Source: Candidatus Eiseniibacteriota bacterium (GTDB lineage: Bacteria; Eisenbacteria; RBG-16-71-46). Taken from it: DNA of 64,000 bases. Location of the stretch: positions 1,152,001 to 1,216,000 of the forward strand of contig OY970178.1 of the NCBI GenBank assembly GCA_963707915.1, written 5' to 3'. Below are positions 21,437-39,569 of the stretch, in pieces (positions within the stretch are counted from its first letter, which is position 1; each line of letters opens with the position of its first letter). Under the pieces are notes generated by a model. That model did no database searches. It saw nothing but the letters and a program-made list of their open reading frames with translations, and was not told the origin of the DNA. The position numbers and the translations under genes were made by a program.

Positions 21437-21446
21437 GCGCGGCCGG

Positions 21447-22385: not shown

Positions 22386-22414
22386 GGGGTCCTCCGCCGA
22401 TCGGGTCGCGCGGC

Positions 22415-24637
22415 TCAACTGCCCGCGCTGGTCTCGAGCACCGCGGCCCGGCGTTCGGCCCGCACGCGCCGCATCCAGACCATGAAGCGCAGGCGCTCCC
22501 GCACCTCGAGGTCGCAATCCAGCACCACCGTCTCCCCACGCGATTGGGCGGGCCCTTCGATGGCCACGGGCGATCCGGGCGTGGCCTCCACGGGCTCCTG
22601 CGATCCCTCGACGGGCCCGGGCACCGCGACCACGGAGGCCGCTTCGGTCTCGAGGGCCGGTCCAGCCACGGAGGCCACTTCGATCACGGGGGCCGCTTCG
22701 GCCACGGGGGCCGCTTCGGCCACGGGGGCCGCTTCGATCACGGGGGCCGCTTCAGCCACGGAGGCCACTTCGATCACGGGGGCCGCTTCGATCGCGGGGG
22801 CCGCTTCAGCCACGGGGGCCCCTTCGATCGCGGGGGCCGTCTCTACCTCCGGGCCCACTTCGACCTCGCGGGTCGCCTCCATCGCCGGGGCCGCTTCAGC
22901 CACGGGGGCCACATCGATCACGGGAGCCTCGATGGCGTCAGGCTGCGCGACGACCGCCCGATTCGCGGTGGGCGATGGACCGGGATGCTGCGCCGCGCCG
23001 CCGGACCGGGCTTCGACTCTTGCCTCCATCAACCAGTCCAGGTCGAAGCAGGAGAACGGGATGCCAAGTCGTTCGGAGAGTGCGACCGCCTTCCTCGGAA
23101 GTCGCGGTCCGGGCTCGGCCCACCACGCTTCGAGGACCCGTCCTCCCAGCGGCAGCGCAGCCGCGCGCGTGACCTTCGGCTCGAGGGCCAGGAGCACCCG
23201 GTCGAAGTGCCCGCGCGCATCCTCGAGCAGCGCGCTCAGCTTGTCCCAGCACGCCGCCCGCCCGGGATCGCCGTGGGCCAGGAAGAAGAAGCCGGTGACC
23301 CCCGCCGCCTGCACCGTCCCCAGCAGCGGGATCTCGCCCGCCATGCACTCGCCGAGGCCCCAGCGCAGGTTCCCGCCGAAGCGTTCGTGCAGCCTCAGAC
23401 GCATCCCCGCGTCCACCAGCAGGACGCGCTCGCCCCGCTCGGTGAACCCGCCGGCCAGCGCGGCCGCGGCGTCCCCGATGCGCGCGCGGTCCGGTCCGCT
23501 CACGAGGTGAAGCCAACCCAGCTCCGCGTCCCAGGCCCGGAGCGCATCGCGGGACAACCGCTCGGCGCGCGGGTCCGGCGCGGCCCGGAAACCACGGGGC
23601 GCCCGCGCGGCGCGCCGCCGGGAGCGCCGCAACAGCCACGGCGCGGAAAGGACCAGGGCGAGCGCGGCCCCGGCGAGCGCGCCCGCCGCGGTGAGCGCGC
23701 CCCAGGTCCGCGCGACGGGGATCGCCCGCGACGCGGGCCCCCAGGTGCCGTGCATGAAGACCGCCGCGGCGGGGTCCGGGGCCAGGCGCTCGAGCGACAG
23801 CGCCCGCCCGAAGGCCTCGCTCACCACCGCATCGTACTGGGACCTGGACAGGCCCGCCTCGAGCGCGCGTTCCGCCTGGTCGAGCAACGGCGCACGCGTC
23901 CGTTCGTGCCACCTCCACGCCGCCTCGATCCGCGCGCGCGGGTCAGGCGCCGGCTCCGCGGCCAGGGACCTCAGCCACTCCCCCTCGGCAGCCGCGCAGG
24001 CGGTGAGCGCGGAAGCCAGCGAATCCGGCCGGGCGGCCAGGGCCAGGCGCACGACTTCGTCCTCGGCCCGCGTCAGCCGCGCCCGCTGCGCCACGCTGGC
24101 CGGCGTCTCGAACGGGGCCTGCGGGGCCACACGCAGGTCCACCAGGGCGACCAGCAGCAACCGCGCCCGGACGAGCACCGCGCACTGGCCGGCGGGCGGC
24201 AGCGCCGTCGTCACCGTCGGTGCGGGTTCGGCACGCCAGCGCTGGCGGGCCTCGGCACGGCGCGCGGCGGATGCGTCCACCCCGCTCAGGCGGCGACGCT
24301 GCAGGTCGCGGGCGAGGGCCTCCGTCCCCGTGGCCGTGAACGAACGCACGGCCAGCAGCGTGCGGTCCCGGTCCGCGACGGGAGCGGCCTGCTCGCCTGC
24401 TTGCCTGGGCCGCGGCCACTCCCCGGGGGCGGGCGGACCTCCCTGCCAGGCCACGCGGGACTCGAACAGGGGGACGCCGACGACGGCGAAACGCTCGGAC
24501 GAGATCCCCAGGAGGCCGGCGACCGGCAGAGCGGCACCCAGCAGGGCGCCCGCCAGGATCGCGACGCCCAGGCGTCCCCGCGCACCGGGTCGGCGGGTGG
24601 CGTCCGGAGGATGGGTGGCGTCTTCCCTGGCGCTCAT
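22415..24637 (-). CDS. Two-TM protein with a degenerate Wzc/CpsD-like ATPase domain and an acidic hexapeptide repeat tail
   Basis: TM-periplasmic-TM layout; [15 protein letters not shown] and FDRVLL align to the BY-kinase/MinD fold, but the Walker A GK[ST] is absent. Confidence 0.6.
22638..22925 (-). repeat. 16 x 18-bp coding tandem repeat, consensus peptide P-V-[AI]-E-A-A
   Basis: Plus-strand units such as GCCGCTTCGGCCACGGGG and GCCACTTCGATCACGGGG in exact 18-nt register. Confidence 0.92.
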
Positions 24638-24695
24638 CGGGTGGGTTTCGGGCTCCTTCCCTGGACAGGGCAGCCCTCATGGACCGCCGGAACGG

Positions 24696-24724
24696 AAGTT
24701 AGACGCCGGGCCGGGGCCGGTCAA
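24696..24724 (-). promoter_or_regulatory. Putative sigma70 promoter for the Wzc-like gene
   Basis: TTGACC-N17-TAACTT on the minus strand. Confidence 0.55.
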
Positions 24725-24732
24725 GGCCCCGC

Positions 24733-26526
24733 TCAGGCGGCGGCCGCCCTGCCTTCCGAACCCGTGTCGCCCGCTTCTTCCTGGCGCACGTCGGACCGCG
24801 GCAGGAGGAAGTAGAAGGTGCTGCCCTCGCCCGGCACGCTGTCGACGCCGATGGTGCCGCCGTGCTGCTCGACGATCCCCTTGCAGATCACCAGGCCCAG
24901 GCCCGTGCCTCCCACCCGGCGCGTGGAGCCGCTGTCGATCTGGGAGAACTTGCGGAAGAGCTTGTGGATGTCCCCGGGGCTGATGCCCTCGCCGCAGTCA
25001 CGCACGCTGACCCGCATCATCGGGCCCTCCGTCGCGACCCGGACCTCGATGCGTCCTTCGGGCGCCGAGAACTTGATGGCGTTCGACAACAGGTTGGTGA
25101 GCACCTGGGCGATGCGGTTCGAGTCCATCCGGAGGTCGGGCAGGCCGGGCTCGAAGCTGCAATCGAGGACGATGTGGCGCTCCGCGATCAGGGTGCGCAG
25201 GTTCTGCACCGCCTGCCGGACCACCGGCTCCAGGCCCTCGACCGCCATGCACATCGGCAGCGAGGCGGACTCGAGCTTCGAGAAGTCGAGGATGTCGTTG
25301 ATGAGCACCAGCAGCCGCTCGGCGTTGGCGTGGGCGATGTTCAGCAGCTTGGCCTGCTGCTCGTTGTTCTGGAAGTAGCGGTCGTCGGTGAGCAACTCCA
25401 CCGCGCCCTTGACCGACGTGAGCGGGGTGCGGATCTCGTGCGAGACCACCGCCACGAACTCGGACTTGAGGCGGTCGAGGACGCGGGTGTGCTCGTAGAG
25501 CCGCGAGTTGTGAACGGCGATGGCGGCTTCCGACGCGTAGAGCTCGAGGAACTTCTCGTCCGCCGCGCTGAACCCGCCCGGCTTGTCGAGCATGACCAGC
25601 AGTCCGAAGACCTGCTGGCCCGCCGACAGCGAGAGCGGCATCGCCAGCAGGGACTCGAACCGCTGCCCGCCGAGCAGCGGCAGCTCGATCGGGTGCTCCG
25701 CCGAGGCCACGCGGCGCACCGCCCGGTAGTCGGGGTGGTCGAAGCCGATGGCCCGCTCGGCCGTGAAGAAGTGGACCCGGTCGGCCTCGCCGCCCGGGAG
25801 CCCCAGCCCGTGGGCCGCGGCCACGCGGCCCTCCTCGGTCTCCTCGAGGCGCAGGTAGACCACGACGGCGCGGGCGCCCGACAGCTCGGCGGCCTTCGAG
25901 GCCACCGTGGCGACCCGCGGGTCGAGCTCGAGATCCGCGCTGATCTCCTTGCCCACCTCGTACAGGGTCCTCATCTGGTGGGTCGCCAGCCGGACCTGCT
26001 CGCGCAACTCCTGCTCGTGGTTGCTCAGGATCTCGTTCTTCTGGCTCAGCTCCTCGACCAGCTGGCGGTTGACGGCGCGCAGCCGGCGGTTGGCCAGCGC
26101 CCGCTCGACGCTGCTCTGCACGTCGTCCAGCTCGAACGGCTTGATGATGTAGTCGTAGGCCCCCTGCCGGATCGCGTCGATGGCCACGGCGGTGGTGGTC
26201 TCGCCGGTGATCAGGATGACCATGGTCTCGTCGTCCGCCTGCCGCGCGAAGCGCATCACGTCGAGGCCCGTGAGACCCGACATGTTGAGGTCGGAGAGCA
26301 CGGCGTCGGGCCGGTAGACGGGGATGCGCGCCACGGCGGCCTCGCCGTTCGCGGCCACCTCGACCTCGTAGCCGAGGGTGGTGAGGAACTCCTGCAGCAG
26401 CTCGGTGACCGTGGCCTCGTCGTCGACCACGAGCAGGCGGGCGGGCGGGCCGCCGCCCACCGCGGTCACGGGGCCGGGAAGCGGGCGGCCTTCGCCGGCC
26501 GGGGGCGTTCCGGGCTCACTGGACAC
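24733..26526 (-). CDS. Hybrid histidine kinase REC-coiled coil-GAF-HisKA-HATPase
   Basis: LLVVDDE, LSDLNM and KPF (receiver); SHEIRTPL; NLLSNAIKFS, DCGEGI and GTGLGL. Confidence 0.93.
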   Translation of the reverse strand: MSSEPGTPPAGEGRPLPGPVTAVGGGPPARLLVVDDEATVTELLQEFLTTLGYEVEVAANGEAAVARIPVYRPDAVLSDLNMSGLTGLDVMRFARQADDETMVILITGETTTAVAIDAIRQGAYDYIIKPFELDDVQSSVERALANRRLRAVNRQLVEELSQKNEILSNHEQELREQVRLATHQMRTLYEVGKEISADLELDPRVATVASKAAELSGARAVVVYLRLEETEEGRVAAAHGLGLPGGEADRVHFFTAERAIGFDHPDYRAVRRVASAEHPIELPLLGGQRFESLLAMPLSLSAGQQVFGLLVMLDKPGGFSAADEKFLELYASEAAIAVHNSRLYEHTRVLDRLKSEFVAVVSHEIRTPLTSVKGAVELLTDDRYFQNNEQQAKLLNIAHANAERLLVLINDILDFSKLESASLPMCMAVEGLEPVVRQAVQNLRTLIAERHIVLDCSFEPGLPDLRMDSNRIAQVLTNLLSNAIKFSAPEGRIEVRVATEGPMMRVSVRDCGEGISPGDIHKLFRKFSQIDSGSTRRVGGTGLGLVICKGIVEQHGGTIGVDSVPGEGSTFYFLLPRSDVRQEEAGDTGSEGRAAAA

Positions 26527-27322
26527 CGGCGGCCTCCGCTGCGACCACCCGGCGGCGGCCGGCCTTGACGGCCAGCGCCAGGGCCCGTTCGGCGCGGTCC
26601 ATGAGCTCGACGCTCTGGAGGCCGTCGCGCGGGCTCGCCGCGACCCCGGCGCTCACGCCCAGGCGGCCGGCGCGCGCGAAGCGGTGCTCCTCGGTGGTGC
26701 GGCGCAGACGCTCGGCGACGCGCAGCGCGGCGATCGGCTCGGTCTCCGGCAGCAGCACGGCGAAACGGCCGCCGGGCAGACGCGCCAGCGCGTCCGTCTC
26801 CCGCAGGGCGAGCCGCAGGACGAGCGCGGCCTCTCCCAGCACGGCGCGGGCCACCGAGGCGCCGTAGCGCTTCGCCAGCGCCGGGAAGCGGTCCAGTTCC
26901 ACGATGGTCACCGCCAGCGGCGCACCGTGCACGCGCACGCGGGCCAGTTCGTCGTCGAGCCGCTGCTGGAAGGCGTGCGCGTCGGGCAGTCCGGTCGCGG
27001 GGTCACGGCCGGGCTGACGACGCAGCCGTTCCAGTTCGAAGCGCGCGCCGAGGGCGGCGCCGAGCGCGCCGGACGCGGCGCGCACGAGGCCGAGCTGGGC
27101 GGGCTGCCAGTGCTGGCCGCGGCGCGCGAGCAGCTCGATCGTCCCCACGCGCTCGCTGCCGCGCAGCAACGGGACCGCCAGGCAGTCACGCAGGTCGCCG
27201 GGCCGGACCGACCATTCCCCGCAGGTCTGCCAGGGCTCGAGATCGCCGGACGGGCCGCGCGCCCGCAGGATCACGGCGTCGCAGTCGAAGGCCGTGCGCA
27301 GGCCGGCCAGCGCACGTTCCAA
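26516..27322 (-). CDS. GAF-like plus degenerate GGDEF protein (PGGRF) with intact RxxD I-site; start uncertain
   Basis: DPATGLPD, ELDRF, RETD-ALARL-PGGRF, SAGVA and AERALALA.K.GR. Confidence 0.85.
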   Translation of the reverse strand: MERALAGLRTAFDCDAVILRARGPSGDLEPWQTCGEWSVRPGDLRDCLAVPLLRGSERVGTIELLARRGQHWQPAQLGLVRAASGALGAALGARFELERLRRQPGRDPATGLPDAHAFQQRLDDELARVRVHGAPLAVTIVELDRFPALAKRYGASVARAVLGEAALVLRLALRETDALARLPGGRFAVLLPETEPIAALRVAERLRRTTEEHRFARAGRLGVSAGVAASPRDGLQSVELMDRAERALALAVKAGRRRVVAAEAAGVQ

Positions 27323-27505
27323 GGTCTTGCGCTCGACCGCGGCCGAGAGCAGCGCCTCGCACGCCTGCCACAGCGAACGCGAAGCGCGGCGGCGCTCCCC
27401 CCCGCACCCTGCGGGTCGGAGGCGCGCACCGTCGCCGGCCCCGGGGCCGGCGGCGCGGCCGGGCCGGGCCGGCGCGTGCGGGCGGGGCCGGTGCGCACGT
27501 CCGGC

Positions 27506-27901
27506 TCAGGCCGCACGGGACGTCGGCTCCGATCCGCGCTCGCGGGCCAGCACCGCGAGGGCGGACTTGAGGGTGTTGAGCCGGTGCGCGGCGTCCCGGA
27601 TGCGATCGGACTCACGGAGCACGACCTCCAGTCGGTCCCGGGCCCCCGGGACCGCGCCGGCGGGTCCCATGAGCAGGAGCTGGGCGTTGCCGCGCACCCC
27701 CACGAGGGCATTGTTGATGTCGTGGTAGACGCCGAGCTGGCGGACCAGCTCGTCCGTCCACCGCAGGTGGTCCTGCCACCAGTTCTCCAGCGCGGCGCAC
27801 AACTCGTCCGAGAGCTCGCCCTGGCCCGCGGCCTCGAGGCGGCCGGCCACGTCCAGCAGGGCCGAGCGCAGCGCGGCGTGCGGGGCGCCGGGCATCGTCA
27901 T
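27506..27901 (-). CDS. Small stand-alone HisKA/DHp-domain protein
   Basis: H-box HDINNALVGVRGNAQLL followed by a second helix; no HATPase domain; 131 aa. Confidence 0.75.
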   Translation of the reverse strand: MTMPGAPHAALRSALLDVAGRLEAAGQGELSDELCAALENWWQDHLRWTDELVRQLGVYHDINNALVGVRGNAQLLLMGPAGAVPGARDRLEVVLRESDRIRDAAHRLNTLKSALAVLARERGSEPTSRAA

Positions 27902-27918
27902 GTCCGCCGGGGCCGGGC

Positions 27919-28806
27919 TCAAGCCGCCAGCTCCTCGCTCGCCAGCGCCTTGTGCAGCCGCAGCCGCAGCCGGGCCATGGCGCGCGTGTGGACCTGCGAG
28001 ACCCGCGACTCGGAGATCCCGAGCGTGCGGCCGATCTCCTTGAGCGTGAGGTGCTCGTAGTAGTAGAGCGCCACCACGAGCCGCTCCTGCTCGGGCAGCA
28101 GGTCGAGCGTGCGCAGCAGGACCAGGCGCGTCTGCTCGTCTTCGAGCCGCGCGTCCAGGTCCACGGCGTGCGGGTCCGGCAGGTGCTCGCCCAGCGTCGT
28201 GGACTCCTGGTCCTCGCTCGAACGGGCCTCGTCCAGCGACACGAGCACCGCCCCGCGGACGTGGTCGAAGAGCCGGTAGAACTCGTTGCGGTTCATCTTG
28301 AGCTCGCGGGCCAACTCGTCCTCGGAGGCCGCGCGACCGAGCTTCTGGTCGAGCGCGCGGGTCACGCCGTCCAGCGTGCGCGCCTTGCGGCGCATCGAGC
28401 GCGACACCCAGTCGAGCGAGCGCAACTGGTCCAGCACGGCGCCCTTGATGCGCCACACGGCGTAGGTCTCGAACTTCACGCCCTTGCGCAGGTCGAACTT
28501 GGCGTGCGCGTCCAGCAGTCCCAGGACGCCCGCCGAGTAGAGGTCCTCGTGGTCCACGTTGCGCGGCAGGGTGGTGGCCACGCGTTCGACCACGTGCCTC
28601 ACCAGCGGCGCGAAGCGGCTCAGCAGCTCCTCCTTCGAGTAGGTCACGGGCGCCGGCGCCGGCACCAGGCGCAGGACGCGGGGCGCCGCGCTGCCCGCGC
28701 GGGGTGCGGACGCGGCCCGGCCCGGGGCCGGGCCCCGGGTGCGCGCGGGTACGGCAGGCTTCGCAACGCGGGTGCGCGTGCGGGTCGCGGCGGAGGGGCG
28801 TGCCAT
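27919..28806 (-). CDS. fliA: FliA/WhiG family RNA polymerase sigma factor (sigma28)
   Basis: Motifs DLYSAGVLGLLDA, FETYA..RIKGAVLDQLRSLDWVSRS and LYYYEHLTLKEIG..LGISESRVSQ; GAGGAG RBS. Confidence 0.95.
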   Translation of the reverse strand: MARPSAATRTRTRVAKPAVPARTRGPAPGRAASAPRAGSAAPRVLRLVPAPAPVTYSKEELLSRFAPLVRHVVERVATTLPRNVDHEDLYSAGVLGLLDAHAKFDLRKGVKFETYAVWRIKGAVLDQLRSLDWVSRSMRRKARTLDGVTRALDQKLGRAASEDELARELKMNRNEFYRLFDHVRGAVLVSLDEARSSEDQESTTLGEHLPDPHAVDLDARLEDEQTRLVLLRTLDLLPEQERLVVALYYYEHLTLKEIGRTLGISESRVSQVHTRAMARLRLRLHKALASEELAA

Positions 28807-28816
28807 GGGGTTCTCC

Positions 28817-29764
28817 TCAGGCTCCGAGCCGCTGGCGATCGCGACGTGCGTCCGCCGGCAGGCGCTCGGGGTGGGTCTCTTCGATCGGCGGCTCGGGCGG
28901 CGGCGGCGTCCACAGACGCAGGGCCAGGGCGCGGTAGGCCGCGGCGGCCGGCGACTGCGGGAAGGCGGTCACGACCGGCTCCTGGCGCCGCACGGCGCGC
29001 GGGATGGCCGGGTCCTCGGGGATCGCGCCGAGGGACTGGAGTTCGAGGTGCAGGAAGCGCCGGGCCACGAGCCGGATGCGGTGCGCGGTCTCCTCGGCCT
29101 CCTCGGCGCTGCTCGCCTGGCTCACCAGCAGGTACGGCGCCTTGCGGATGCCCTGGGCGCTCAGGACCTTGATCAGGCCGTAGGCGTCGGCGAAGGCCGG
29201 CATCTCGGGCGTCGTCATCACGATCACGTCGTCCGCGGCCAGGCACAGCGCGAGCGCGTCGCGCGTCACGCCCGAGGCCGTGTCCGCGATGACCAGGTCC
29301 GCCTCGCCGTCCAGCGTGCCGATGCCGCGCAGCAGGAGCTCGCGCCGGTAGTCGTCCAACTCGGCCAGCTCGGGCACGTCCGAGGCCGCGGGGATGAGGC
29401 GCACGCCGCCCGGCCCGTCCACCAGGACCTCCTCGAGCGTGCGCTCGCCGGCGAGCACGTGCTGCAGGTCGTAGCGCGGGTGGACCCCCAGCAACAGGTC
29501 GAGGTTGGCCTGCGAGAAGTCGGCGTCGAGCAGCAGCACGCGCGCACCGTTGTCGCCCATGGCCACCGCCAGGTTCGCGCACAGGTTGCTCTTGCCCACG
29601 CCGCCCTTGCCGCTCGCTACCACGAGCATGCGGGTGTGCGGGCGATCCCAGTTCGCGGGATGGTCGTGGAACGCGCCGGACGGCGCGACCCGCGGCATGA
29701 CGCGCAGCGGCCCCGCCGGGGACGGACCGCGGCGGGGGCCGCCGGAAGCGCGATCGGTGGCCAT
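28817..29764 (-). CDS. flhG: FlhG/FleN-like MinD/ParA ATPase
   Basis: Motifs SGKGGVGKS, LLDADFSQANLD, DTASG and TTPE...ADAYGLIK; lies directly upstream of fliA. Confidence 0.85.
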   Translation of the reverse strand: MATDRASGGPRRGPSPAGPLRVMPRVAPSGAFHDHPANWDRPHTRMLVVASGKGGVGKSNLCANLAVAMGDNGARVLLLDADFSQANLDLLLGVHPRYDLQHVLAGERTLEEVLVDGPGGVRLIPAASDVPELAELDDYRRELLLRGIGTLDGEADLVIADTASGVTRDALALCLAADDVIVMTTPEMPAFADAYGLIKVLSAQGIRKAPYLLVSQASSAEEAEETAHRIRLVARRFLHLELQSLGAIPEDPAIPRAVRRQEPVVTAFPQSPAAAAYRALALRLWTPPPPEPPIEETHPERLPADARRDRQRLGA

Positions 29765-30021
29765 CAGTGGCCTGCGCCCGACCGGGTGGCGCGGGACCGT
29801 GGCGCGGCCGGCAGCGCGAAGAGCGCCGAGAGGAACTCCCAGTAGCGCAGCTGCTCGCGGCAGCGGTGCAGCGGCTCCTCGAGGCCGAGCCGCTCCAGGC
29901 GGCGCTCCTCCTCGCGCAACGAGGCCAGCGCGGCGCGCGACTGGTCGGCGCGCAGCGCGGGCGTGGGCGGGATGGCGCGGCGCGGGTCGGAGCGGGACGT
30001 GAGCGCGGGCTGGCGGTTCAC
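29764..30021 (-). CDS. Small hypothetical helical protein (85 aa)
   Basis: GTG start overlaps the upstream stop and its own stop overlaps the flhG ATG; core sequence LREEERRLERLGLEEPL.RCREQLRYWEFL. Confidence 0.6.
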   Translation of the reverse strand: MNRQPALTSRSDPRRAIPPTPALRADQSRAALASLREEERRLERLGLEEPLHRCREQLRYWEFLSALFALPAAPRSRATRSGAGH

Positions 30022-30326
30022 GACGCCCTCCGCAGGCGCGCGGCCGGGGTCGCGAAGCGCGGCAGGCCCGCCCGCGCGACGCCGCCGCCGACCCGCTCGC
30101 GAAGCTGCGAGAGCAGCGCGGCGTAGGAGCGCTCGATGCGGGCGGCCGGGACGCCGAGCACGCTCGCCGCCTCGGAGGGCGTCAGGCGCTCGAAGAGCAG
30201 CAGGGCGAGGAGCACGCGTTCGCGCACGGCGCACCCGCTGAGGGCGCGTGCCACGACCTCGCGGCAGTCGTGCCGGGGGAGCGCGACCAGGCGGTGCGAG
30301 GACGGGGCCGGACGGCGCGGGCGCAT
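30018..30326 (-). CDS. Sigma70 region-4-only protein
   Basis: ERVLLALLLFERLTPSEAASVLGV aligns without gaps to FliA region 4 (ERLVVALYYYEHLTLKEIGRTLGI). Confidence 0.7.
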   Translation of the reverse strand: MRPRRPAPSSHRLVALPRHDCREVVARALSGCAVRERVLLALLLFERLTPSEAASVLGVPAARIERSYAALLSQLRERVGGGVARAGLPRFATPAARLRRAS

Positions 30327-30727
30327 CAGGCGGCCCTGCGCTGCGGCCGCACGTCACGGAGGTCCGCCGCCCGCCGCAGCGAACGGTGCACGGCGTGGCG
30401 GAGCGCGTCCATGGCGAACGGCTTGGGGAAGCACTCGAAGACGCCGGCGGCGGCGAGCGCGCGCAGCGTCTCGGGGCTGCCGTAGGCGGTCAGGATGATG
30501 ACCGGTAGGGTCCGGCGGCTGCGCGCCAGCTTGCGGGCCAGGTCGAGACCGCTCATGCCCGGCAGGCGCAGGTCGGAGATCACGAGGTCGCACTGGTCCT
30601 GCTGCAGCCAGCCCAGCGCCTCCTCCGCGGACGAGAACGTGTCGATGCTGAAGCCGTCGTCCGAGAGCCCCTCGGCCAGGGCCCAGGCGGTGCTCGGTTC
30701 GTCTTCGACGATCAGGATGTGGGGCAT
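30326..30727 (-). CDS. Single-domain response regulator (receiver)
   Basis: Motifs ILIVEDE, ISDLRLPGMSG, ILTAY and KPF; GGAG RBS. Confidence 0.92.
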   Translation of the reverse strand: MPHILIVEDEPSTAWALAEGLSDDGFSIDTFSSAEEALGWLQQDQCDLVISDLRLPGMSGLDLARKLARSRRTLPVIILTAYGSPETLRALAAAGVFECFPKPFAMDALRHAVHRSLRRAADLRDVRPQRRAA

Positions 30728-30763
30728 GAGCGTGGATCTCCGTTGGGTGCGGGAGCCTCGATT

Positions 30764-30780
30764 TGCACCCCGCGTGCCAG
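30764..30780 (-). promoter_or_regulatory. Sigma54 (-24/-12) promoter
   Basis: CTGGCACGCGGGGTGCA on the minus strand, with exact GG-N10-GC spacing, ~36 nt upstream of the receiver gene. Confidence 0.85.
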
Positions 30781-31195
30781 CAGGAGACCCGGTGCCGCGG
30801 AGGCGGGCCGCGGGGCCCGGGAGGAGGCCGGGAGCCGGGTCGGCGCGCCCGCCACCTCGTTCACGCGCGCAGGATTAGCCCTGCCGGGCCGGGGGCTGGC
30901 GCGCGTGCCCCGCTCCCCGGGGCGGAGGCGTCGACCCGGCCGTGTCGCAACGGGCAAGCCCGGCCTTGCAGGATGCCCGCCCAACCTCGTTCCGCCCGGG
31001 TCCCTCGCGCGACCGCTTCTTGACCGCGGGTGGCCCGGGAGGGGCCCGGCGTGTGCGCGTCGCGCCGGGCCCCCGGGAAGCGCCCACGCGCGGGGAGCGC
31101 CGCGACCCGGCCGGGGCCGGGCGGCCGGGGACGCGCGCCCCGCCCGCGGCGGCGTGCGCCGCCGCAGAACGCCCGGAGGAGGGACCTTCAGCCGA

Positions 31196-32617
31196 TCAGA
31201 GGTCCTCGCCCGCCTCGTCCGGGTCGTCGCCGAGCGCGTAGTCCTTGAGCTTCGTGCGCAACGTCTGGCGCGAGATGCCCAGTTGCTTCGCGGCGAGCGT
31301 CTTGTTGCCACCGCACACTGACAACGCGTGCTCGATCGCCAGCTTCTCGACCTCGACCAGCGGCCGCACCACTCCGGGCAGGAACACCCCCGCCGCCGAA
31401 GCCGGGGCGCGGGGCCCCCCGCGCGTTCCGGTCACCTCCGGCGGCAGGTGCTCGACGCGGATCTCGTCCTCGGCCTCGAGCAGCACGACGCGCTCCATCA
31501 GGTTCCGCAGCTCCCGGACGTTTCCCGGCCAGGCGTAGTCGAGCAGCACGCGCAGGGCGTCGGGGTGCAGCCGCGCCGTGGGGCGGCCCAGCTCGCGGCA
31601 GAACTGGGCGACGAAATGCTCGGCCATGAGCGGCACGTCCTCACGGCGCTCGCGCAGCGGCGGCACCTCGATGGGGACCACGTTGAGGCGGAAGTAGAGG
31701 TCCTCGCGGAAGCGCCCCTCCGCCACCGCCTTCGGCAGGTCGCGGTGGGTGGCGGCGATGACGCGCACGTCCACGGTGATGTCGCTCCCGCCGCCCACGC
31801 GGCGGAAGGTGCGGGTCTCGAGGACGTGGAGCAGCTTGGCCTGCAGGCCCGGGGTCATCTCGCCGATCTCGTCGAGGAACAGCGCGCCGCCGTCGGCCAG
31901 CTCGAAGAGGCCCTTCTTGAAGCGCTTGGCGTCGGTGAAGGCGCCCTTCTCGTGTCCGTACAGCTCGCTCTCCAGCAACTGCTCGGGGATGGCGCTGCAG
32001 TTGAGCTCCACGAACGGGCCATCGGCGCGCGCGCTGTGCGCATGGAGGTAGCGCGCCAGCAACCCCTTGCCCGAGCCGGTCTCGCCGCGGACCAGGATGG
32101 TCGCGGTGCCGCTCTTGCCCGCCTTCTCGAGGCGCTTGAGCGCGAGGCGCAGGCCCGGGCTCTCCCCGATGATGGGCGGGCACTTCTCCAGCCGGGCGCT
32201 CGCGACCTCGCGGCGCAGACGCCCGCGCTCGAGCGCGCGCTTCAGCACGATGCCGAGGTGCTCGAGGTTCGGGGGCTTGAGCATGAAGTCGAAGGCCCCC
32301 AGCCGGGTGGCCTCGACCGCGTGCTCGATGGTGCCGTGCCCGGTGAGCATGAGGACCGGCAGGTCCGGCTCCTCGGCGCGCAGGCGCCGGAGCACGTCGA
32401 GCCCGTCCTCGGCCCCCAGCCTCAGGTCGAGGATGACCGCGTCGACCGACCGGTCGCGCACGTGATCGATCGCCGTCCCGCCGTCCTCGGCCTCGAGGGG
32501 GTGGTAGCCGGCATCGCGCGCCCACTCGCCGATGCTGAAGCGCAGCGAGCGCTCGTCGTCAACGATGAGCAGCGTCTGAGGGGCCTGCGTCCGCGGCGCT
32601 GCTTCGTCTTTCGCCAT
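31196..32617 (-). CDS. Sigma54-dependent response regulator (NtrC/AtoC/FleR-like REC-AAA+-HTH)
   Basis: Motifs [48 protein letters not shown] and a Fis-type HTH. Confidence 0.96.
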
Positions 32618-33791
32618 GTCGCTTCTCCACGTGGAAATCCAGGAGCACGGTGGTGCCGCCGCCCTCGCGGCTCGCGACCTCGATCGCGCCGCCGTGCTCC
32701 TGCATGATGGTCTGGCAGATGGACAGCCCCAGCCCGCTGCCCTTCGGTTTGGTCGAGAAGAACGGGTCGAAGAGCTTGTCGAGCGCGCCCCGCGGGATCC
32801 CCGCGCCGCTATCGGTCACGCGGATCTGCTGGATGGCGATCCACTCCCCCGGCGCGGTGCCGTGCGCCGAGCGGAGCGCGCCGGCCCGGCGTTCCGGACC
32901 GTCCCCGGCCCGGCGTCCGGGACCACGCGGGGCCCGGCGGCGGCGGGTCATGCGGACCTCGTAGCGCAGCGTGCCGCCCTGCGGCATGGCCTGCACCGCG
33001 TTCAGCGTCACGTTGAGGACGACCTGCGTCACCAGGTCGGCATCGATCCAGACCGGCCGGAGCCCGGGCTTCGCCTCGACCTCGACGCGCACGCCGGACC
33101 GGGCGAACGAGTCGGCCGAGAGCTCGACGACGCGCCGCACGCAGTCCTCGAGCCGGCCGGGCCTCAGCTCGGGGGTCCGCGGGCGCGCGTACTGCAGCAG
33201 GTTCGTGACCAGCCGGTCGAGCCGCGCCACCTCTTCGAGGATGACGCTCACGAAGCGCGCCCGCGGGTCGCGGGGCTCGAAGCGCCCCAGCAGCACCTGC
33301 GCGCTGACGCCGATGCCGGCCAGCGGGTTGCGGATCTCGTGCGCCACTCCCGCCGAGAGCTGGCCGATGGTCGCGAGGCGCTCGTTGCGCCGCAGCTCCT
33401 GCTGCATCCGGCGTGGCTGCGTGAGATCGCGCAGCACGAGCAGGACGCGCGCCGGGCGGCCGAAGCGGAAGCCCCGCAGGAGCACCGGCACCTCGCCCCC
33501 ACCGCGCGGGGCGAGCATGATCTCGCGCTGGGTCGTCTCGGCGCCGAAGGTCTCGGCGACCGGGTCGTCGCCGGGCACGACGGTGCGTACCAGCCCGGAG
33601 GCGGCGCGCCCGCGGACCACGGTCCCCCGCAGTCCGAGCAGGCGCAGGGCCGCCGGGTTCGCGGCCGTCACGCGGCCCCGCGGGTCGAGCAGCAGGACCC
33701 CGTGCTCGACATCGGCCATGAGCAATCGGCCGGCAGCCTCCACGGGTGCCGTTCCCTCAGCGCGTGCGCGGACCGTGCGCTTCACCGGCAT
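32559..33791 (-). CDS. Cytoplasmic PAS sensor histidine kinase (NtrB/FleS-like)
   Basis: PAS segment ANPAALRLLG, AHEIRNPL, NAVQAM, DSGAGI, PFFSTK and GSGLGL; no TM segment. Confidence 0.93.
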   Translation of the reverse strand: MPVKRTVRARAEGTAPVEAAGRLLMADVEHGVLLLDPRGRVTAANPAALRLLGLRGTVVRGRAASGLVRTVVPGDDPVAETFGAETTQREIMLAPRGGGEVPVLLRGFRFGRPARVLLVLRDLTQPRRMQQELRRNERLATIGQLSAGVAHEIRNPLAGIGVSAQVLLGRFEPRDPRARFVSVILEEVARLDRLVTNLLQYARPRTPELRPGRLEDCVRRVVELSADSFARSGVRVEVEAKPGLRPVWIDADLVTQVVLNVTLNAVQAMPQGGTLRYEVRMTRRRRAPRGPGRRAGDGPERRAGALRSAHGTAPGEWIAIQQIRVTDSGAGIPRGALDKLFDPFFSTKPKGSGLGLSICQTIMQEHGGAIEVASREGGGTTVLLDFHVEKRHGERRSSAADAGPSDAAHR

Positions 33792-33837
33792 GGACGCTCC
33801 ATCGTGCGCGCAGTATCGCAGAGGAGGACCGCAAACC

Positions 33838-33862
33838 AAAAGCCCGCCGGGGCGGCGGGCTT
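33838..33862 (-). terminator. Intrinsic terminator after csrA-flgM
   Basis: Minus-strand hairpin GCCCGCCG-CCC-CGGCGGGC followed by TTTTGGTTT. Confidence 0.8.
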
Positions 33863-34118
33863 ATCGGTCCGTCAACTCCTCCAGGATCGCGTCCAGCAGC
33901 TTCTCACGCACGTCCGCGCGGTCGTAGAAGCCGGCGGCGATGCGCGCGCGCGCGGCCTCGACCCGGGACCTGCGCACGTCCGCCTCGCCACGTGAGCGCT
34001 CGGTGCCCGCGGGGGGCACCAGTCGGATGCGCGCGCGGCGCAGGGAATCCCGATCGAGGACTCCCGTGCCGCCTGCGTCGGCGAAGCCGGTCGCGGACGC
34101 CTCGTCGGCGGCCGTCAT
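33861..34118 (-). CDS. flgM: FlgM-like anti-sigma28 factor
   Basis: 85 aa; low-complexity N-terminus, then DVRRSRVEAARARIAAGFY...KLLDAIL, matching the FlgM C-terminal D.R..+V..++..I..G.Y pattern. Confidence 0.75.
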   Translation of the reverse strand: MTAADEASATGFADAGGTGVLDRDSLRRARIRLVPPAGTERSRGEADVRRSRVEAARARIAAGFYDRADVREKLLDAILEELTDR

Positions 34119-34131
34119 GCCGGCACGGGGG

Positions 34132-34380
34132 TCAGCGGGAGCCGCCCGCCTTGCCCGGATCGCCCCTGGTACCCGGCGGTCCCGGCTCGCCCGGCTTTCC
34201 CTGCTGCGCGCGACGGGTTTCCTCCTGGATGCGGGCATAGATCTCTTCGCGGTGGACCTTCACCTCGGGCGGCGCCTCGATGCCGAGCTTCACCTGGCCC
34301 GAGCGCACTTCCAGCACGGTGATCTTGACCGAGTCCCCGATCCGGATGTTTTCGCCTAACTTCCTTGTTAGGACCAGCAT
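34132..34380 (-). CDS. csrA: Carbon storage regulator CsrA/RsmA
   Basis: [16 protein letters not shown]...[24 protein letters not shown]. Confidence 0.97.
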
Positions 34381-34435
34381 CTTGGAACTACCTCCGCATC
34401 TTTACGGGGCAGCCGTCACTCCTGCATCATGGAAC

Positions 34436-34463
34436 GTATCGGCTTGGGCCGCGCATGACTTGA
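34436..34463 (-). promoter_or_regulatory. Putative sigma28 promoter of csrA-flgM
   Basis: TCAAG-N15-GCCGATAC on the minus strand. Confidence 0.75.
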
Positions 34464-34760
34464 CGCGAGAATAGACGGAATCGTCCGGGCATTCAAAACC
34501 TGCGTCACCCGGGCCGGCGGGGTAGCGCGGCCCGGACCGGTCCTTCCACCCACCGGCCGACGAGCCCCGGGCCGGTCCACCACGGGCACCGGCGCGCACC
34601 GGATCCCCATCGTCATTTCCATGCACGCCATGCGATTACAGGCCTGAGCCAAGACGGTACTCGAACTCCGGCAGAGGCGGGCATGCGGCCGGCCATCACG
34701 CCCCGTAACGGCGGCTGGCGGGGCCGATGGTGCGCGGGACGCGGGTGCGTCCCGAAAGGC

Positions 34761-35237
34761 TCAGTCGCCCCAGCGCCCCGGGACGCCGAAGCCGGGATAG
34801 TAGCCGGGGTACTGGTACTGCAGCGGCGAGCGCAGGTCCTGGTATTGGATCTGGAACTGCATCGAGCGGCTCGGCTGGTAGGCGAGGCTGAAGCCCTGCA
34901 GGTAGAACGACTGACCGTTGCGCGGGGTGTTGGCTCCCCACGCGTTGCCCAGGCTCACGCTCATCGCGACCGGGACCTTGAAGCTGTAGCTGAGCGTCGT
35001 CACCTGCAGCGCGCTCGTGCCGCGCGAGCCCCATCCCGACGAGCCCACGCTCACCATGGACGAGACGTGCAGTCGCGACGGATCGATCCAGTCGCGGGCC
35101 AGGCCGAAGGCGCTGACCGGGACGCGGGGGCTGAACAGCGGCGCGCCGCCGATCATGCCGGCGATCGAGTGGCCAGCGAGGCAGACGGCAAGGATCACGG
35201 ACACCAAGGCGGGCACGACGATCCGGCGCAGGTTCAT
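34761..35237 (-). CDS. Exported hypothetical beta-rich protein
   Basis: Signal peptide MNLRRIVVPALVSVILAVCLAG, alternating beta-strand pattern, Tyr/Pro/Gly-rich tail. Confidence 0.75.
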   Translation of the reverse strand: MNLRRIVVPALVSVILAVCLAGHSIAGMIGGAPLFSPRVPVSAFGLARDWIDPSRLHVSSMVSVGSSGWGSRGTSALQVTTLSYSFKVPVAMSVSLGNAWGANTPRNGQSFYLQGFSLAYQPSRSMQFQIQYQDLRSPLQYQYPGYYPGFGVPGRWGD

Positions 35238-35244
35238 GGCTCGA

Positions 35245-35273
35245 ACGTTAAGAACCCGGCGGGCCGGTGTCAA
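35245..35273 (-). promoter_or_regulatory. Sigma70 promoter for a leaderless mRNA
   Basis: TTGACA-N17-TAACGT-N7-ATG. Confidence 0.7.
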
Positions 35274-35368
35274 CTGGATTGTGGCCACGGTGCGCCCCTC
35301 GACGACCTCGACCCGCGCGGTCTGGCCGCGCGGGTCCAGGTCCGGAGATCCGGAACGTCAAGCTCCTG

Positions 35369-36418
35369 TCAGGCTTCCACCTTGAGGACGATGCGCAGGA
35401 CGATCTCCTGCGCCGCGCCGCGCGGGATCGTGACCGGCACGACGAGCTCGGCGGGCCCGGCCTTCGGCGTCTCCGTCGCGACCGTCGCGACTACCGCAAG
35501 CGGCGCGACCGGCGCGACCGCGGGGGCCGCAGCGGACGCGACGACCGGCGCGGGGGCCGTCGCCTGGCGCGGAGCCGGCTGGGCCTCCGCGGCGGCCACG
35601 GTCTTCAGCCGCGGCGCGCTCTCACCGGGGAGCGTGATCTCGCGCCCGTACTCGAGACCCGCCACCACCGCGTCGTTCTCCCGCGCGATGGTCTCCTGCG
35701 CCTCCTGCGCGATGGACCACTGGGGCGCCAGCGGCGACGCTGCCTGCGTGCGCGAGGGATCCGCCTTCGCCGTCGGCTCCGCGCCACCCGGGACCGGGCG
35801 CGAGGCCGCGCTCGCGAACGGCGTGCGGCGCAGGTCCTTCGTCACCTTCTCCATGAGCAGGTGCGAGACGCCGCGGAAGGTCTCGAACACGCCCTTGCCG
35901 GTCGGGGCCACCGCCTCGAAGCTCGGCACCTTGCCCCCCGGGTTCAACTCGGCGTCGAGTTCCTCGACCGAGTAGACGTTGGGGAGATCGCGCTTGTTGT
36001 ACTGGATCACCCACGGGGTCTCGTCGAGGCTCAGTCCGTACTCGGCGAGGTTCGTCTTCAGGTTGAGGAGGCTCTCCTTGTTCTCCTCCATCTTGCCGAC
36101 CTCGCTGTCGGCGACGAAGACGATGGCGTCCGCTCCCTTGAGCACGAGCTTGCGGGTGGCGTTGTAGAACACCTGGCCCGGCACCGTGTAGAGCAGGAAG
36201 CGGGTCTTGAACCCCATGATCTCGCCCAGGTCGAGCGGCAGCAGGTCGAAGAAGAGCGTCCGGTCGGACTGCGTCTTCATGCTGACCATCTTGCCGCGGC
36301 TGGTATCGGGCACCGCCTCGTAGATGGCCTCGAGGTTCGTCGTCTTGCCGCTCAAGCCCGCACCGTAGTAGACGAGCTTCGCGTTGATCTCCTTGCCCGA
36401 GTAGCTCACGACAACCAC
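35369..36418 (-). CDS. mglA: MglA-family small GTPase with a ~150-aa C-terminal extension
   Basis: Motifs EINAKLVYYGAGLSGKTTNL, DRTLFFDLLPL, YTVPGQVFYNATR and QYNKRDL; AGGAGG RBS before the GTG. Confidence 0.9.
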   Translation of the reverse strand: MVVVSYSGKEINAKLVYYGAGLSGKTTNLEAIYEAVPDTSRGKMVSMKTQSDRTLFFDLLPLDLGEIMGFKTRFLLYTVPGQVFYNATRKLVLKGADAIVFVADSEVGKMEENKESLLNLKTNLAEYGLSLDETPWVIQYNKRDLPNVYSVEELDAELNPGGKVPSFEAVAPTGKGVFETFRGVSHLLMEKVTKDLRRTPFASAASRPVPGGAEPTAKADPSRTQAASPLAPQWSIAQEAQETIARENDAVVAGLEYGREITLPGESAPRLKTVAAAEAQPAPRQATAPAPVVASAAAPAVAPVAPLAVVATVATETPKAGPAELVVPVTIPRGAAQEIVLRIVLKVEA

Positions 36419-36692
36419 GGCGCGTCCCTCCTGATGCGACCCCACACTGTCACAAAGCCGGATCCCATGGAGCCCCTTGCCGCCCTTCTCCACGGAGACC
36501 TTGAGAGCGGACGATCCGTCCCTGTCGATCGCCGGGCGCGAAGGCCCGTGATCGGGACGGCCGGCACCGCCGCATGGGGTCGCAACGCTGGTTGGGGGAG
36601 CTCCGCCCCGCCCGCCCGGGAGCCCTGCACGGATTCCCGATGCGGTCGGACAGGTGAAGTCACGATGCGGAGCGCCACCCTGTCAGGTGGGC

Positions 36693-36720
36693 TTATCGGC
36701 GCGGGGAGCGCGTTCCCTTA
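36693..36720 (-). promoter_or_regulatory. Putative sigma28 promoter upstream of mglA
   Basis: TAAGG-N15-GCCGATAA on the minus strand. Confidence 0.65.
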
Positions 36721-36847
36721 GCGAAAAGGCGGAGGAGCGCCAGGGGCCGCCGGGTCGGCGCGGACGGGCCCCGGCTGCGCCGGGAGGCGGGCGCGGGGGG
36801 CCTGCCCCGGCGCGGGGCGCAGCCCGCAGGGCGCGGGCGCCCGCCGG

Positions 36848-37270
36848 CTAGAGGCCGGATCCCGCCAGGGCGCTCTCCCGACGGAGGAAGACGCCGGGGC
36901 GCTCGCGCAGGTGGGGCTGCATGCGACAGTCGGCGCGCTCGTAGTGGCTCAGGAAGATGCGCTTGAGCTCCTCGCAGCGGTCGCTGGCGAAGTAGCGCCG
37001 GGCCCGGGTGAACATCTCGTCGCGCTCGGAGTACACGAAGGCCGTGACCTCCGTGACCCGCTCGTACTGCGACTCCCCGTACGCCGCGCCGGGGGAGTCC
37101 TCCATGTCGAGCCAGAGCGAGGCCCGCGGATTCAGGACCTCGAAGTTGTGCCGGCCGGTCATCAGGTGCTCCCACAGGCCGAAGATCTCGAGGGGCACGT
37201 ACCGCTCCGTGGCGGGCCCCGTGCCGCCGGCGCGCCGAATCTCGCAACGCATGATCTTCTGGCTGCCCAT
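36848..37270 (-). CDS. Hypothetical protein (140 aa)
   Basis: GGAGG RBS, globular-looking composition, high-GC third-position codon usage; no family recognised. Confidence 0.7.
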   Translation of the reverse strand: MGSQKIMRCEIRRAGGTGPATERYVPLEIFGLWEHLMTGRHNFEVLNPRASLWLDMEDSPGAAYGESQYERVTEVTAFVYSERDEMFTRARRYFASDRCEELKRIFLSHYERADCRMQPHLRERPGVFLRRESALAGSGL

Positions 37271-37445
37271 GACGCCAACCCTCCCGCAGGACCGGGACGG
37301 ACCACCCATTGTCGGGACTTCGCGAGTCATCGTATTCCTCCGGTCGAACCCGGTCAACGGTCGAGGGGTCCGGGCCGCGCACAAGTCCATGCTCCGCCGC
37401 GCGCTGGGCGGTTCCCCGGTCCCGCCGAGAGTGCTGGACCGATAC

Positions 37446-37475
37446 TTGACATCGCTTCCGGGCCGAAAGTAGTTT
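37446..37475 (+). promoter_or_regulatory. Putative sigma70 promoter of the acyltransferase-GT4-MFS operon
   Basis: TTGACA-N18-TAGTTT. Confidence 0.55.
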
Positions 37476-37530
37476 CGGACCGCTCGGCCGGCCTGTCGCG
37501 CGCCGCCGCGAGCAGGGAGTGGGGAACAGG

Positions 37531-39563: not shown

Positions 39564-39569
39564 GCGCCC

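Follow-up and report, generated by a model that had tools for sequence, protein, structure and literature searches.

A stand-alone copy of sigma-28-type domain 4 encoded behind a receiver gene in Candidatus Eisenbacteria: a possible sigma-factor mimic

Introduction

HsbA of Pseudomonas aeruginosa is an anti-anti-sigma factor that sequesters FlgM independently of secretion; it is under phosphorelay control and is linked to diguanylate cyclase and CheR/CheW genes (PMC5085249). Partner switching by PhyR is described in another report (PMC4551977). The present study concerns a small gene of a Candidatus Eiseniibacteriota bacterium (GenBank assembly GCA_963707915.1), situated at 30018..30326 on the minus strand of a 64,000-nucleotide stretch of contig OY970178.1 (positions 1,152,001 to 1,216,000; this whole stretch is referred to as the window). 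Its product, for which the name SIG4 (sigma-4-only protein) is used here, consists of a sigma-28-type domain 4 and is encoded between a receiver gene and fliA. To our knowledge, PhyR is the one family in which sigma-factor mimicry has been described to date, and there it concerns extracytoplasmic function (ECF) sigma factors alone.

The locus reads, on the minus strand, CsrA, a FlgM-like protein, a PAS kinase, an NtrC-type sigma-54 activator, a 470-bp gap, a single-domain receiver, SIG4, a conserved 85-aa protein (ORF85), a FlhG-like ATPase, FliA, a HisKA protein consisting of the dimerization and histidine phosphotransfer (DHp) part only, a GAF-GGDEF protein and a hybrid kinase (Table 1). All 13 genes of this regulatory locus are intact.

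The PhyR-NepR-EcfG system of the Alphaproteobacteria resembles this arrangement in two respects: a receiver is coupled to a sigma-like domain that cannot function as a sigma factor, and the gene for this domain has a genuine sigma factor gene and genes for small helical proteins next to it. PhyR, however, is a single chain with sigma-2-like and sigma-4-like parts ahead of its receiver, and the sigma factor that it imitates is of the ECF type (group 4). SIG4 and its receiver are separate genes, with the receiver first; SIG4 has no sigma-2 part, and the sigma factor that served as its model belongs to group 3 (FliA/WhiG). The counterpart of NepR is only putative in the Eisenbacteria locus. With the HsbA-FlgM system, this locus shares the combination of a FlgM-like gene, receivers, kinases and a GGDEF protein, and a CheR-like gene is present in one related family (f2, see below). 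HsbA, in contrast, is a STAS-domain protein regulated by serine phosphorylation, whereas SIG4 has a sigma-4 fold without STAS. SIG4 is a member of neither the PhyR-NepR nor the HsbA-FlgM family. A third likeness is to domain 4 of FliA/sigma-28 as seen in complexes with FlgM (1rp3, 1sc5 and 9wsf), which is the best profile and structure match (27–31% identity over approximately 60 residues) and whose groove is kept. SIG4 differs from sigma-28 in the absence of domains 2 and 3 and of the 3/4 linker, in the loss of the Ser and Gln that read the −35 element, and in the addition of basic tails.

Results

SIG4 consists only of a sigma domain 4

The SIG4 open reading frame (ORF) begins with ATG and encodes 102 aa. 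Its G+C contents at the three codon positions (0.82/0.62/0.95) follow the pattern of the neighbouring real genes, in a window whose overall G+C content is 73.6%, and a frame plot reveals three successive coding frames, corresponding to the receiver gene, SIG4 and ORF85. The initial annotation, made from the sequence alone, had described a region-4-only protein that aligns without gaps to the neighbouring FliA. BLASTP of SIG4 against that FliA did return a single gapless alignment, of 54 residues (SIG4 35–88, FliA 240–293; 16/54 identical, E 2e-6). In this alignment GVPAARIER of SIG4 is situated opposite GISESRVSQ of FliA, so that the reported replacement of the recognition helix SESRVSQ by PAARIER is seen as well. 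Sigma regions 2 and 3, which had also been said to be absent, are indeed lacking: immediately upstream, the DNA codes for a receiver domain, in a different frame. As it has no domain 2 or 3, SIG4 would be unable to direct transcription itself.

Against Pfam Sigma70_r4 (PF04545), SIG4 alone scored 14.7 bits (cut-off 24.1, E 0.022). NCBIfam sigma models matched it partially, in the C-terminal part only (sigma70-ECF 9e-7, WhiG 3e-5, FliA_WhiG 7e-5); the match to TIGR02479 (FliA/WhiG) was confined to model positions 160–223 of 224, with 22.7 bits against a cut-off of 189.6. The NCBIfam PhyR model NF006623 gave 14.6 bits (cut-off 240), and a Pfam scan at E ≤ 0.1 gave no STAS and no GerE or LuxR family match. 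When the genome was searched with the SIG4 sequence (E ≤ 0.001), SIG4 itself and the window FliA were the only matches; the second FliA of the genome did not match significantly.

A profile of 57 SIG4 family members (alignment A1, described below) was compared with all solved chains. The first match was sigma-28 of Aquifex (1rp3_A, E 6.5e-9) and the second WhiG (6pfj_A, E 8.9e-9), with Pseudomonas FliA (9wsm/9wsf) at 7–9e-8. The FliA chains were followed by SigF and ECF sigma-4 domains, and the profile also reached the sigma-like domain of PhyR (2lfw, E 1.7e-3) and the NarL-type regulator DosR (1zlj, E 7e-3). An AlphaFold model of SIG4 has a mean predicted local distance difference test score (pLDDT) of 78.9, with values of 90–97 over residues 21–80, and contains four helices and a tail helix of low confidence. 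The best Foldseek match for this model was sigma-28 in the sigma-28/FlgM crystal (domain 4 of 1rp3), on which it superimposes at 0.9–1.2 Å over 61–64 residues with 28–30% identity; VraR was reached as well. It is apparent that the protein is laid out as a basic N-terminal tail, a four-helix core (residues 21–80), a variable linker and a conserved C-terminal tail. The charge of the core, counted by hand, is net positive. By profile and by predicted fold SIG4 is closest to domain 4 of FliA/WhiG, and a lineage-specific stand-alone copy of such a domain is the best explanation of its origin.

SIG4 is conserved and under purifying selection

A word-indexed search returned 81 stand-alone SIG4 homologues of 65–117 aa, mostly 99–108 aa, with identities down to approximately 52%. 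From an exhaustive phmmer search, 75 clusters (50% identity level) were obtained, almost all with lengths of 80–135 aa. One precomputed homologue (P0078) carries PF08281. Among the longer proteins that were searched (180–2000 aa), no fusion of SIG4 to a receiver or to a sigma-2 domain was found. There was one odd match of 205 aa (P0154); it carries PF02668 and is located on an 851-bp contig. SIG4 is confirmed as a genuine, conserved protein consisting only of sigma-28-type domain 4.

Four proteins were left out of A1: P0082 (3544 aa, 34 stretches), the top phmmer match, which is a coiled-coil repeat protein matched by composition; P0122, a repetitive protein; and P0153 and P0138, which are FliA-like. 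The core positions L29, R37, L40, L42, L44, E46, L48, E52, A54, L57 and L75 are each kept in at least 90% of members. The C-terminal tail, RLRRAS or RLRKAS (SIG4 residues 96–102), contains an Arg (R99) that is likewise present in at least 90% of the 57. This tail comes after a linker whose length varies; it is retained by members with 35–45% identity elsewhere and is absent from the homologues of families f2, f3 and f4 (see below). From its sequence it looks like a docking or degradation signal.

Ratios of nonsynonymous to synonymous substitution (dN/dS) for SIG4 against four close orthologues were 0.30–0.44, compared with 0.14–0.33 for the receiver and 0.05–0.10 for FliA region 4. SIG4 is under purifying selection, and its constraint is looser than that of these neighbours.

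The A1 profile was unable to separate SIG4 from FliA region 4 at E values of 1e-6 to 1e-13. Matches of A1 in 149 of 151 genomes are therefore not a count of SIG4, because FliA region 4 is matched too, and synteny was relied upon instead. In the ESM Atlas, clusters of 83–103 aa annotated only as Sigma70_r4 or r4_2 occur in Planctomycetota, Actinomycetota and Cyanobacteriota; their scores to SIG4 of 0.93–0.96 express likeness by feature score, without alignment or context. In the literature that was searched, no function was described for stand-alone sigma-70 region 4 clusters of other phyla. The open full-text literature, as distinct from subscription papers, gave no description of a FliA-derived sigma-4-only protein, and a search on Eisenbacteria and flagella gave none of the SIG4 locus.

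The receiver gene is the constant partner of SIG4

Close homologues of SIG4 sit in metagenome-assembled genomes of Candidatus Eisenbacteria, and the gene order is the same in every related record long enough to show it. The receiver gene is located upstream of SIG4 in all 23 related locus records. ORF85 is found downstream in 21 of the 23, and the remaining two records break off no more than 33 nt from the SIG4 match. A search for related loci, built on a 12-member alignment, returned 14 loci; three of these, from Micromonospora, Acidimicrobiales and Myxococcota, were weak matches without synteny and were dropped.

Sixteen further loci were taken from other families of the class. Two f3 loci have the order receiver, SIG4, ORF85, FlhG, FliA. 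Two f2 loci contain an activator, a receiver, a CheR-like gene, a second receiver and a sigma-4-only protein, and the single f4 locus contains a receiver, a sigma-4-only protein and FliA, without ORF85 or FlhG. FlhG and FliA occur without receiver, SIG4 or ORF85 in f7, f10 and f15; f18 has a receiver followed by FliA, and the one f13 locus has a sigma-4-only ORF without an adjacent receiver. A receiver thus precedes the sigma-4-only gene in four families (f1, f2, f3 and f4), in f2 without FliA nearby: there, FliA is situated 27 kb from the sigma-4-only gene, behind flhA-flhF-flhG. The f2 homologues pass Pfam (PF04545, 29.9 and 35.3 bits; PF08281, 29.2 and 38.7 bits), and the f4 version has an R-R-I-Q recognition helix as in ordinary sigma factors. 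The hidden Markov model of ORF85 matched f1 and f3 loci only, and in no locus was ORF85 found without SIG4 and FlhG as its neighbours. As the arrangements vary across the families fetched while the receiver stays, the constant partner gene of SIG4 is the receiver, and not FliA, FlhG or ORF85. This gene, which precedes SIG4, is the strongest contextual clue at the locus, and it had been overlooked in the initial annotation.

The f2 group (L059 5475-7451, L061 7836-9691) comprises an orthologous receiver, a CheR-type methyltransferase, a second receiver and a sigma-4-only protein of 104–106 aa. It is flanked by two kinase/sigma-54-activator pairs and is unlinked to FliA.

Groove positions are kept and base-reading positions are altered

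The contacts of Pseudomonas sigma-28 domain 4 are given in a structural report of 2026: FlgM packs on L187, I191, L200, A203, L204 and L210, Y206 forms a hydrogen bond with FlgM E104, and E209 is also at the interface; the substitution L204R changes FlgM binding from 2.2 to 422 nM, approximately 200-fold weaker, and S224 and Q228 read bases of the −35 element (PMC12784957). SIG4 was aligned to this sigma-28 without gaps; the numbering of the chain and that of the paper are offset by +5, as checked on eight residues. The interface positions L187, I191, L200, A203, L204, Y206, E209 and L210 map to SIG4 V25, L29, V38, A41, L42, L44, R47 and L48, respectively. Among the 57 members of A1, V25 is V, L or I in 54, L29 is L in 52, V38 is L, V, A or I in 48, A41 is A in 46, L42 is L in 53, L44 is L in 55, R47 is R in 51 and L48 is L in 53. 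S224 corresponds to Ala62, which is variable (R in 21, A in 15, others in 21), and Q228 corresponds to Arg66, which is R in 42 of the 57. Tyr68, also on the recognition helix, is present in 42 of the 57.

Judged by this alignment, the FlgM groove positions are kept in SIG4. The position of S224, which reads the −35 element, is variable, and at the second such position Gln has given way to Arg. At the level of sequence, a kept groove combined with altered base-reading positions is what a mimic needs.

The first candidate for a protein that binds this groove is the FlgM-like protein encoded upstream (Table 1). Its family has a conserved G-[FWY]-Y-[DE]-R motif, which we take to resemble FlgM. The 3′ end of csrA overlaps the longest reading of the ORF, so that the start at 34118 is more likely.

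The locus persists in genomes without detectable flagellar genes

The initial annotation had presumed that a flagellar export apparatus is missing. For this genome the presumption does not hold: a flagellar cluster is situated approximately 500 kb from the SIG4 locus. It contains FlgB/C, FliE-I, FlgD/E, FliL/M, FliR, FlhB, FlhA, FlhF, FlgF-I, FlgK/N, MotB, two flagellins and FlbT/FlaF, and it carries its own flhF-flhG-fliA (G000:C1:1687929-1690405; L027 15929-18405, minus strand). The FlhG of the cluster has an N-terminal DQAAALR, and its FliA is only 40% identical to the window FliA. FlhA (G000:C1:1690395-1692574 and neighbours) reads in three frames; in comparison with the intact FlhA of a genome of the same genus (G005), it shows frame-changing indels between pieces that are 92–97% identical. 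FliG, FlhB and FliI are present in this genome as partial ORFs only. Errors of assembly or recent pseudogene formation could each account for these broken and partial frames.

The FliA proteins of all relatives examined, whether next to flhF-flhG or not, scored 235–319 bits against the window FliA and 148–167 bits against the second copy, which argues that the window copy is the usual FliA of the phylum. Since the FliA of the cluster is unlike that of all relatives examined, the flagellar cluster may be accessory or re-acquired.

A scan detected FlhA in 17 of the 59 other family genomes, in none of six from f3, in all three from f2 and in none of 32 from f10. Nine of the scanned family genomes have a SIG4 locus verified by tblastn, and FlhA was found in one of them (G005). 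Five relatives that are 93–100% complete and have kept the locus (G004, G021, G024, G010 and G017) gave no FlhA, FliF or flagellin match. To that extent the presumption of a missing export apparatus is partly reinstated, and it holds for many relatives. The five retain the locus including the FlgM-like gene, whose identity is tentative. In most of the family, as judged from gene content, the window-type FliA, CsrA and the FlgM-like gene persist without flagella. Because the locus is kept where flagellar genes were not found, a handling of the anti-sigma factor that is independent of export would be needed there.

Predicted operon structure and neighbouring genes

The coordinates of the features of the locus are presented in Table 1. 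The receiver and SIG4 genes meet at TGATG (1 nt shared), SIG4 and ORF85 at GTGA (ORF85 having a GTG start) and ORF85 and FlhG at TGATG; FlhG and FliA are separated by a gap of 10 nt. The overlapping start and stop codons are conserved in relatives. A scan of 26400–31300 gave no sigma-70-like promoter and no intrinsic terminator pattern. The sequence is consistent with co-transcription of SIG4 with fliA, as had been proposed in the initial annotation. A motif CTGGCAC-N5-[CG]TGCAA is found 49–59 nt before the receiver ATG in all 15 distinct upstream regions, and it is likely that the NtrC-type activator acts at the corresponding promoter in the window. A contig of 466 nt from an RNA library of a relative matches at 85% likeness and spans the ORF85/SIG4 junction; as a contig is no proof of a transcript and carry-over of DNA is possible, it was given no weight. 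No public sequencing run shares more than 0.11 of the words of the window, and Rfam gave no match at the gathering threshold in 20000–40000.

Inspection by eye showed that the phospho-acceptor residues of the receiver are kept, its Asp (in VISDLRLPG), Thr, Lys and acidic pocket all being present, and that the window FlhG is without the N-terminal DQAxxLR motif present in the second FlhG of the genome. The DHp-only protein, encoded between FliA and the GGDEF gene, has the H-box HDINNAL and may, from its sequence, serve the lone receiver as its histidine phosphotransfer protein. Its ORF is masked in plain ORF lists by a longer, spurious ORF (27506-28456).

ORF85 has a third-position G+C content of approximately 1.0. 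An alignment of 14 orthologues (A3) contains 18 invariant columns, among them D12, P18, R24, D26, C54 and an R-Y-W-x-F aromatic patch. The AlphaFold2 model (pLDDT 81.5) has helices at residues 21–45 and 48–69, and no Pfam, PDB-sequence or informative fold match was obtained. Two identities were considered for ORF85. A split-off activator helix of FlhG was rejected: the Asp is invariant, but neither the Gln of the DQAxxLR motif nor its spacing is retained. An RsiG-like anti-sigma factor that binds cyclic di-GMP would be expected to have the motif E-x3-S-x2-R-x3-Q-x3-D, which is not visible by eye in ORF85. For a predicted complex of SIG4 (A1) with ORF85 (A3), each of two runs gave an ipSAE of 0.01 (mark 0.32), without controls, and the result counts neither way.

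CsrA has a C-terminal extension rich in G-x-P (weak Pfam Collagen match, E 0.005). An ORF of 374 aa at 35369-36493 on the minus strand, 1 kb from csrA, encodes an N-terminal small-GTPase-like domain (weak Arf match, E 4e-4) and a long Ala/Pro-rich tail.

Table 1. Features of the SIG4 locus in the window, in order of decreasing coordinate
Feature	Position	Strand	Description and evidence
CsrA	34132..34380	-	Pfam CsrA, E 4e-26
FlgM-like candidate	33861..34118	-	85 aa; Pfam FlgM (PF04316) E 0.02, 15.5 bits, cut-off 25
PAS histidine kinase	32559..33839	-	Paired with the activator; Pfam, synteny
NtrC-type sigma-54 activator	31196..32617	-	REC-AAA-Fis helix-turn-helix; Pfam, synteny
Sigma-54-type promoter	30765..30779	-	TGGCAC-N5-GTGCA, 38-52 nt upstream of receiver ATG
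Receiver	30326..30727	-	Single-domain response regulator, 133 aa; Pfam Response_reg E 3.2e-28
SIG4	30018..30326	-	Stand-alone sigma-28-type domain 4, 102 aa
ORF85	29764..30021	-	Conserved 85-aa protein without known family; predicted helical hairpin
MinD/FlhG-like P-loop ATPase	28817..29764	-	315 aa
FliA/WhiG-family sigma factor	27919..28806	-	295 aa; TIGR02479 242-243 bits, cut-off 189.6
HisKA-like DHp-only protein	27506..27901	-	131 aa; HisKA E 1.4e-5, 25.4 bits, cut-off 26.9
GAF-GGDEF protein	26516..27322	-	Pfam; conserved synteny
Hybrid histidine kinase	24733..26526	-	REC-GAF-HisKA-HATPase; Pfam, conserved synteny

Discussion

The reading preferred here, tentatively, is that SIG4 is a receiver-gated mimic of sigma domain 4 that competes with domain 4 of FliA for a groove-binding partner; this is a possibility rather than a probability. 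SIG4 would be made from a sigma-54-dependent operon together with the receiver, the 85-aa hairpin protein, the FlhG-like ATPase and FliA. A groove-binding protein would find in SIG4 the same hydrophobic groove as in domain 4 of FliA. The FlgM-like protein encoded 3.5 kb upstream is the first candidate for this partner, and its capture would set the level of free FliA without secretion of the anti-sigma factor. The availability of SIG4 would be decided by the phosphorylation state of the adjacent receiver. The binding steps, the identity of the partner and the gating by the receiver are what we infer from the data presented above. The module would then correspond to PhyR-NepR-EcfG, in split form and for a group-3 sigma factor, and in function it would be analogous to HsbA-FlgM of Pseudomonas. 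The initial annotation had put forward a putative decoy for FlgM, an interpretation that is supported in part. It is conceivable, with more doubt, that receiver and sigma-4-only protein form a two-gene partner switch that evolved apart from PhyR by the copying of a group-3 sigma domain 4, in which the receiver, phosphorylated or unphosphorylated, releases a mimic that titrates a FliA/WhiG anti-sigma factor.

Several observations weigh against a mimic of this kind. The assignment of the FlgM-like protein is weak: one of seven orthologues touches Pfam FlgM (E 0.02), the family profile matches no FlgM chain in the PDB, and a genome-wide scan for FlgM gave two sub-cut-off matches only, the ORF at 33861-34118 and one inside a 758-aa frame. 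The hydrophobic groove positions are needed by any sigma-4 fold, so that their retention, though necessary to the model, does not single out FlgM; Y206, which bonds FlgM, is Leu in SIG4, and E209 is Arg. The sigma-4-only gene of f2 is linked to neither FliA nor a CsrA/FlgM-like pair within the 16 kb examined. Moreover, f10 keeps FliA without FlhA (0/32) and has no SIG4 beside FlhG-FliA in three loci, which argues that a mimic is not required for FliA to function without flagella. The conserved C-terminal tail is unexplained by the mimic model, and the net positive core, with Arg66 and Tyr68 on the recognition helix, would be compatible with binding of DNA.

This last property leads to the strongest competitor of the mimic. 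Isolated sigma-4 or GerE/LuxR-type domains can act as transcription factors, and it is almost as likely, though still doubtful, that a two-component regulator is split here, with SIG4 as its DNA-binding output half: the phosphorylated receiver would bind or release this helix-turn-helix protein, which would then regulate transcription at operators of its own. The receiver is, after all, the one constant neighbour of SIG4; the profile reaches DosR (1zlj, E 7e-3) and the fold search VraR; and Arg66 and Tyr68 are fairly conserved, a point to which the R-R-I-Q helix of f4 and the charge of the core may be added. A split regulator accords less well with the lack of receiver-SIG4 fusions among the longer proteins searched, with the variation of recognition-helix positions 62, 63 and 65 among orthologues that share one conserved locus, with the lack of a GerE/LuxR match at E ≤ 0.1 and with a distance to sigma-28 that is approximately six orders of magnitude closer than that to NarL-type domains. 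The other alternatives are minor. An unlikely one, related to an alternative raised in the initial annotation, is that SIG4 binds the β-flap tip of RNA polymerase, either in competition with sigma-70-family factors or as a co-factor whose tail docks another protein, which would resemble gp33 of phage T4. The sigma-4 fold and hydrophobic groove are retained, and the conserved tail, with R99 in at least 90% of 57 members, follows the variable linker in the manner of a docking peptide. On the other side, to compete with every sigma factor would be costly, any part played by the tail is speculative and the f2, f3 and f4 versions are without RLRRAS.

Two further proposals, both improbable, bring in the genes downstream. 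SigO-RsoA of Bacillus is a precedent for a sigma factor of two subunits, and SIG4 and ORF85 might similarly supply the functions of region 4 and region 2. The two genes overlap (GTGA), ORF85 follows SIG4 in 21 of 23 records and its R-Y-W-x-F patch is invariant; against this, ORF85 has no likeness in sequence or fold to sigma region 2, and no ORF85 is present beside the sigma-4-only gene in f2 or f4. By analogy with the action of ParG/ParB on ParA, SIG4 might instead be a small helix-turn-helix adaptor with flexible basic tails that stimulates or localises the neighbouring FlhG/MinD-like ATPase, whose gene is two genes downstream of SIG4 in f1 and f3; basic N- and C-terminal tails do flank its helix-turn-helix core. 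Such a role sits poorly with the sigma-4-only genes of f2 and f4, which have no FlhG beside them, and with the eight loci of f2, f7, f10 and f15 in which FlhG has no SIG4 beside it. As for a decaying, functionless remnant of a duplicated or frameshifted sigma gene, an origin that the initial annotation had itself held out as a refutation, SIG4 does evolve faster than its neighbours (dN/dS 0.30–0.44, against 0.05–0.10 for FliA region 4). Nevertheless, the 81 stand-alone homologues of constant size, the 75 clusters at 50% identity, the intact codon bias, dN/dS values below 0.5, the conserved overlaps of start and stop codons and the presence upstream of a receiver, rather than of sigma regions 2 and 3, refute this explanation.

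Were SIG4 to prove a receiver-gated mimic of sigma domain 4, it would be a second, independent and physically split sigma-factor mimic, one that acts on a sigma-28-type factor, and the copying of a single sigma domain would emerge as a general route to anti-anti-sigma factors. It would also explain how pairs of the FliA/FlgM type are kept and controlled without flagellar secretion in most of the sampled members of one candidate-phylum family. The sigma-28 regulon would then be under two-component signalling instead of flagellar secretion, including in many Eisenbacteria without flagella. Even if SIG4 binds DNA, the locus represents an unusually complete regulatory module, extending from a sigma-54 activator to a hybrid kinase, that can be rebuilt in a laboratory host.

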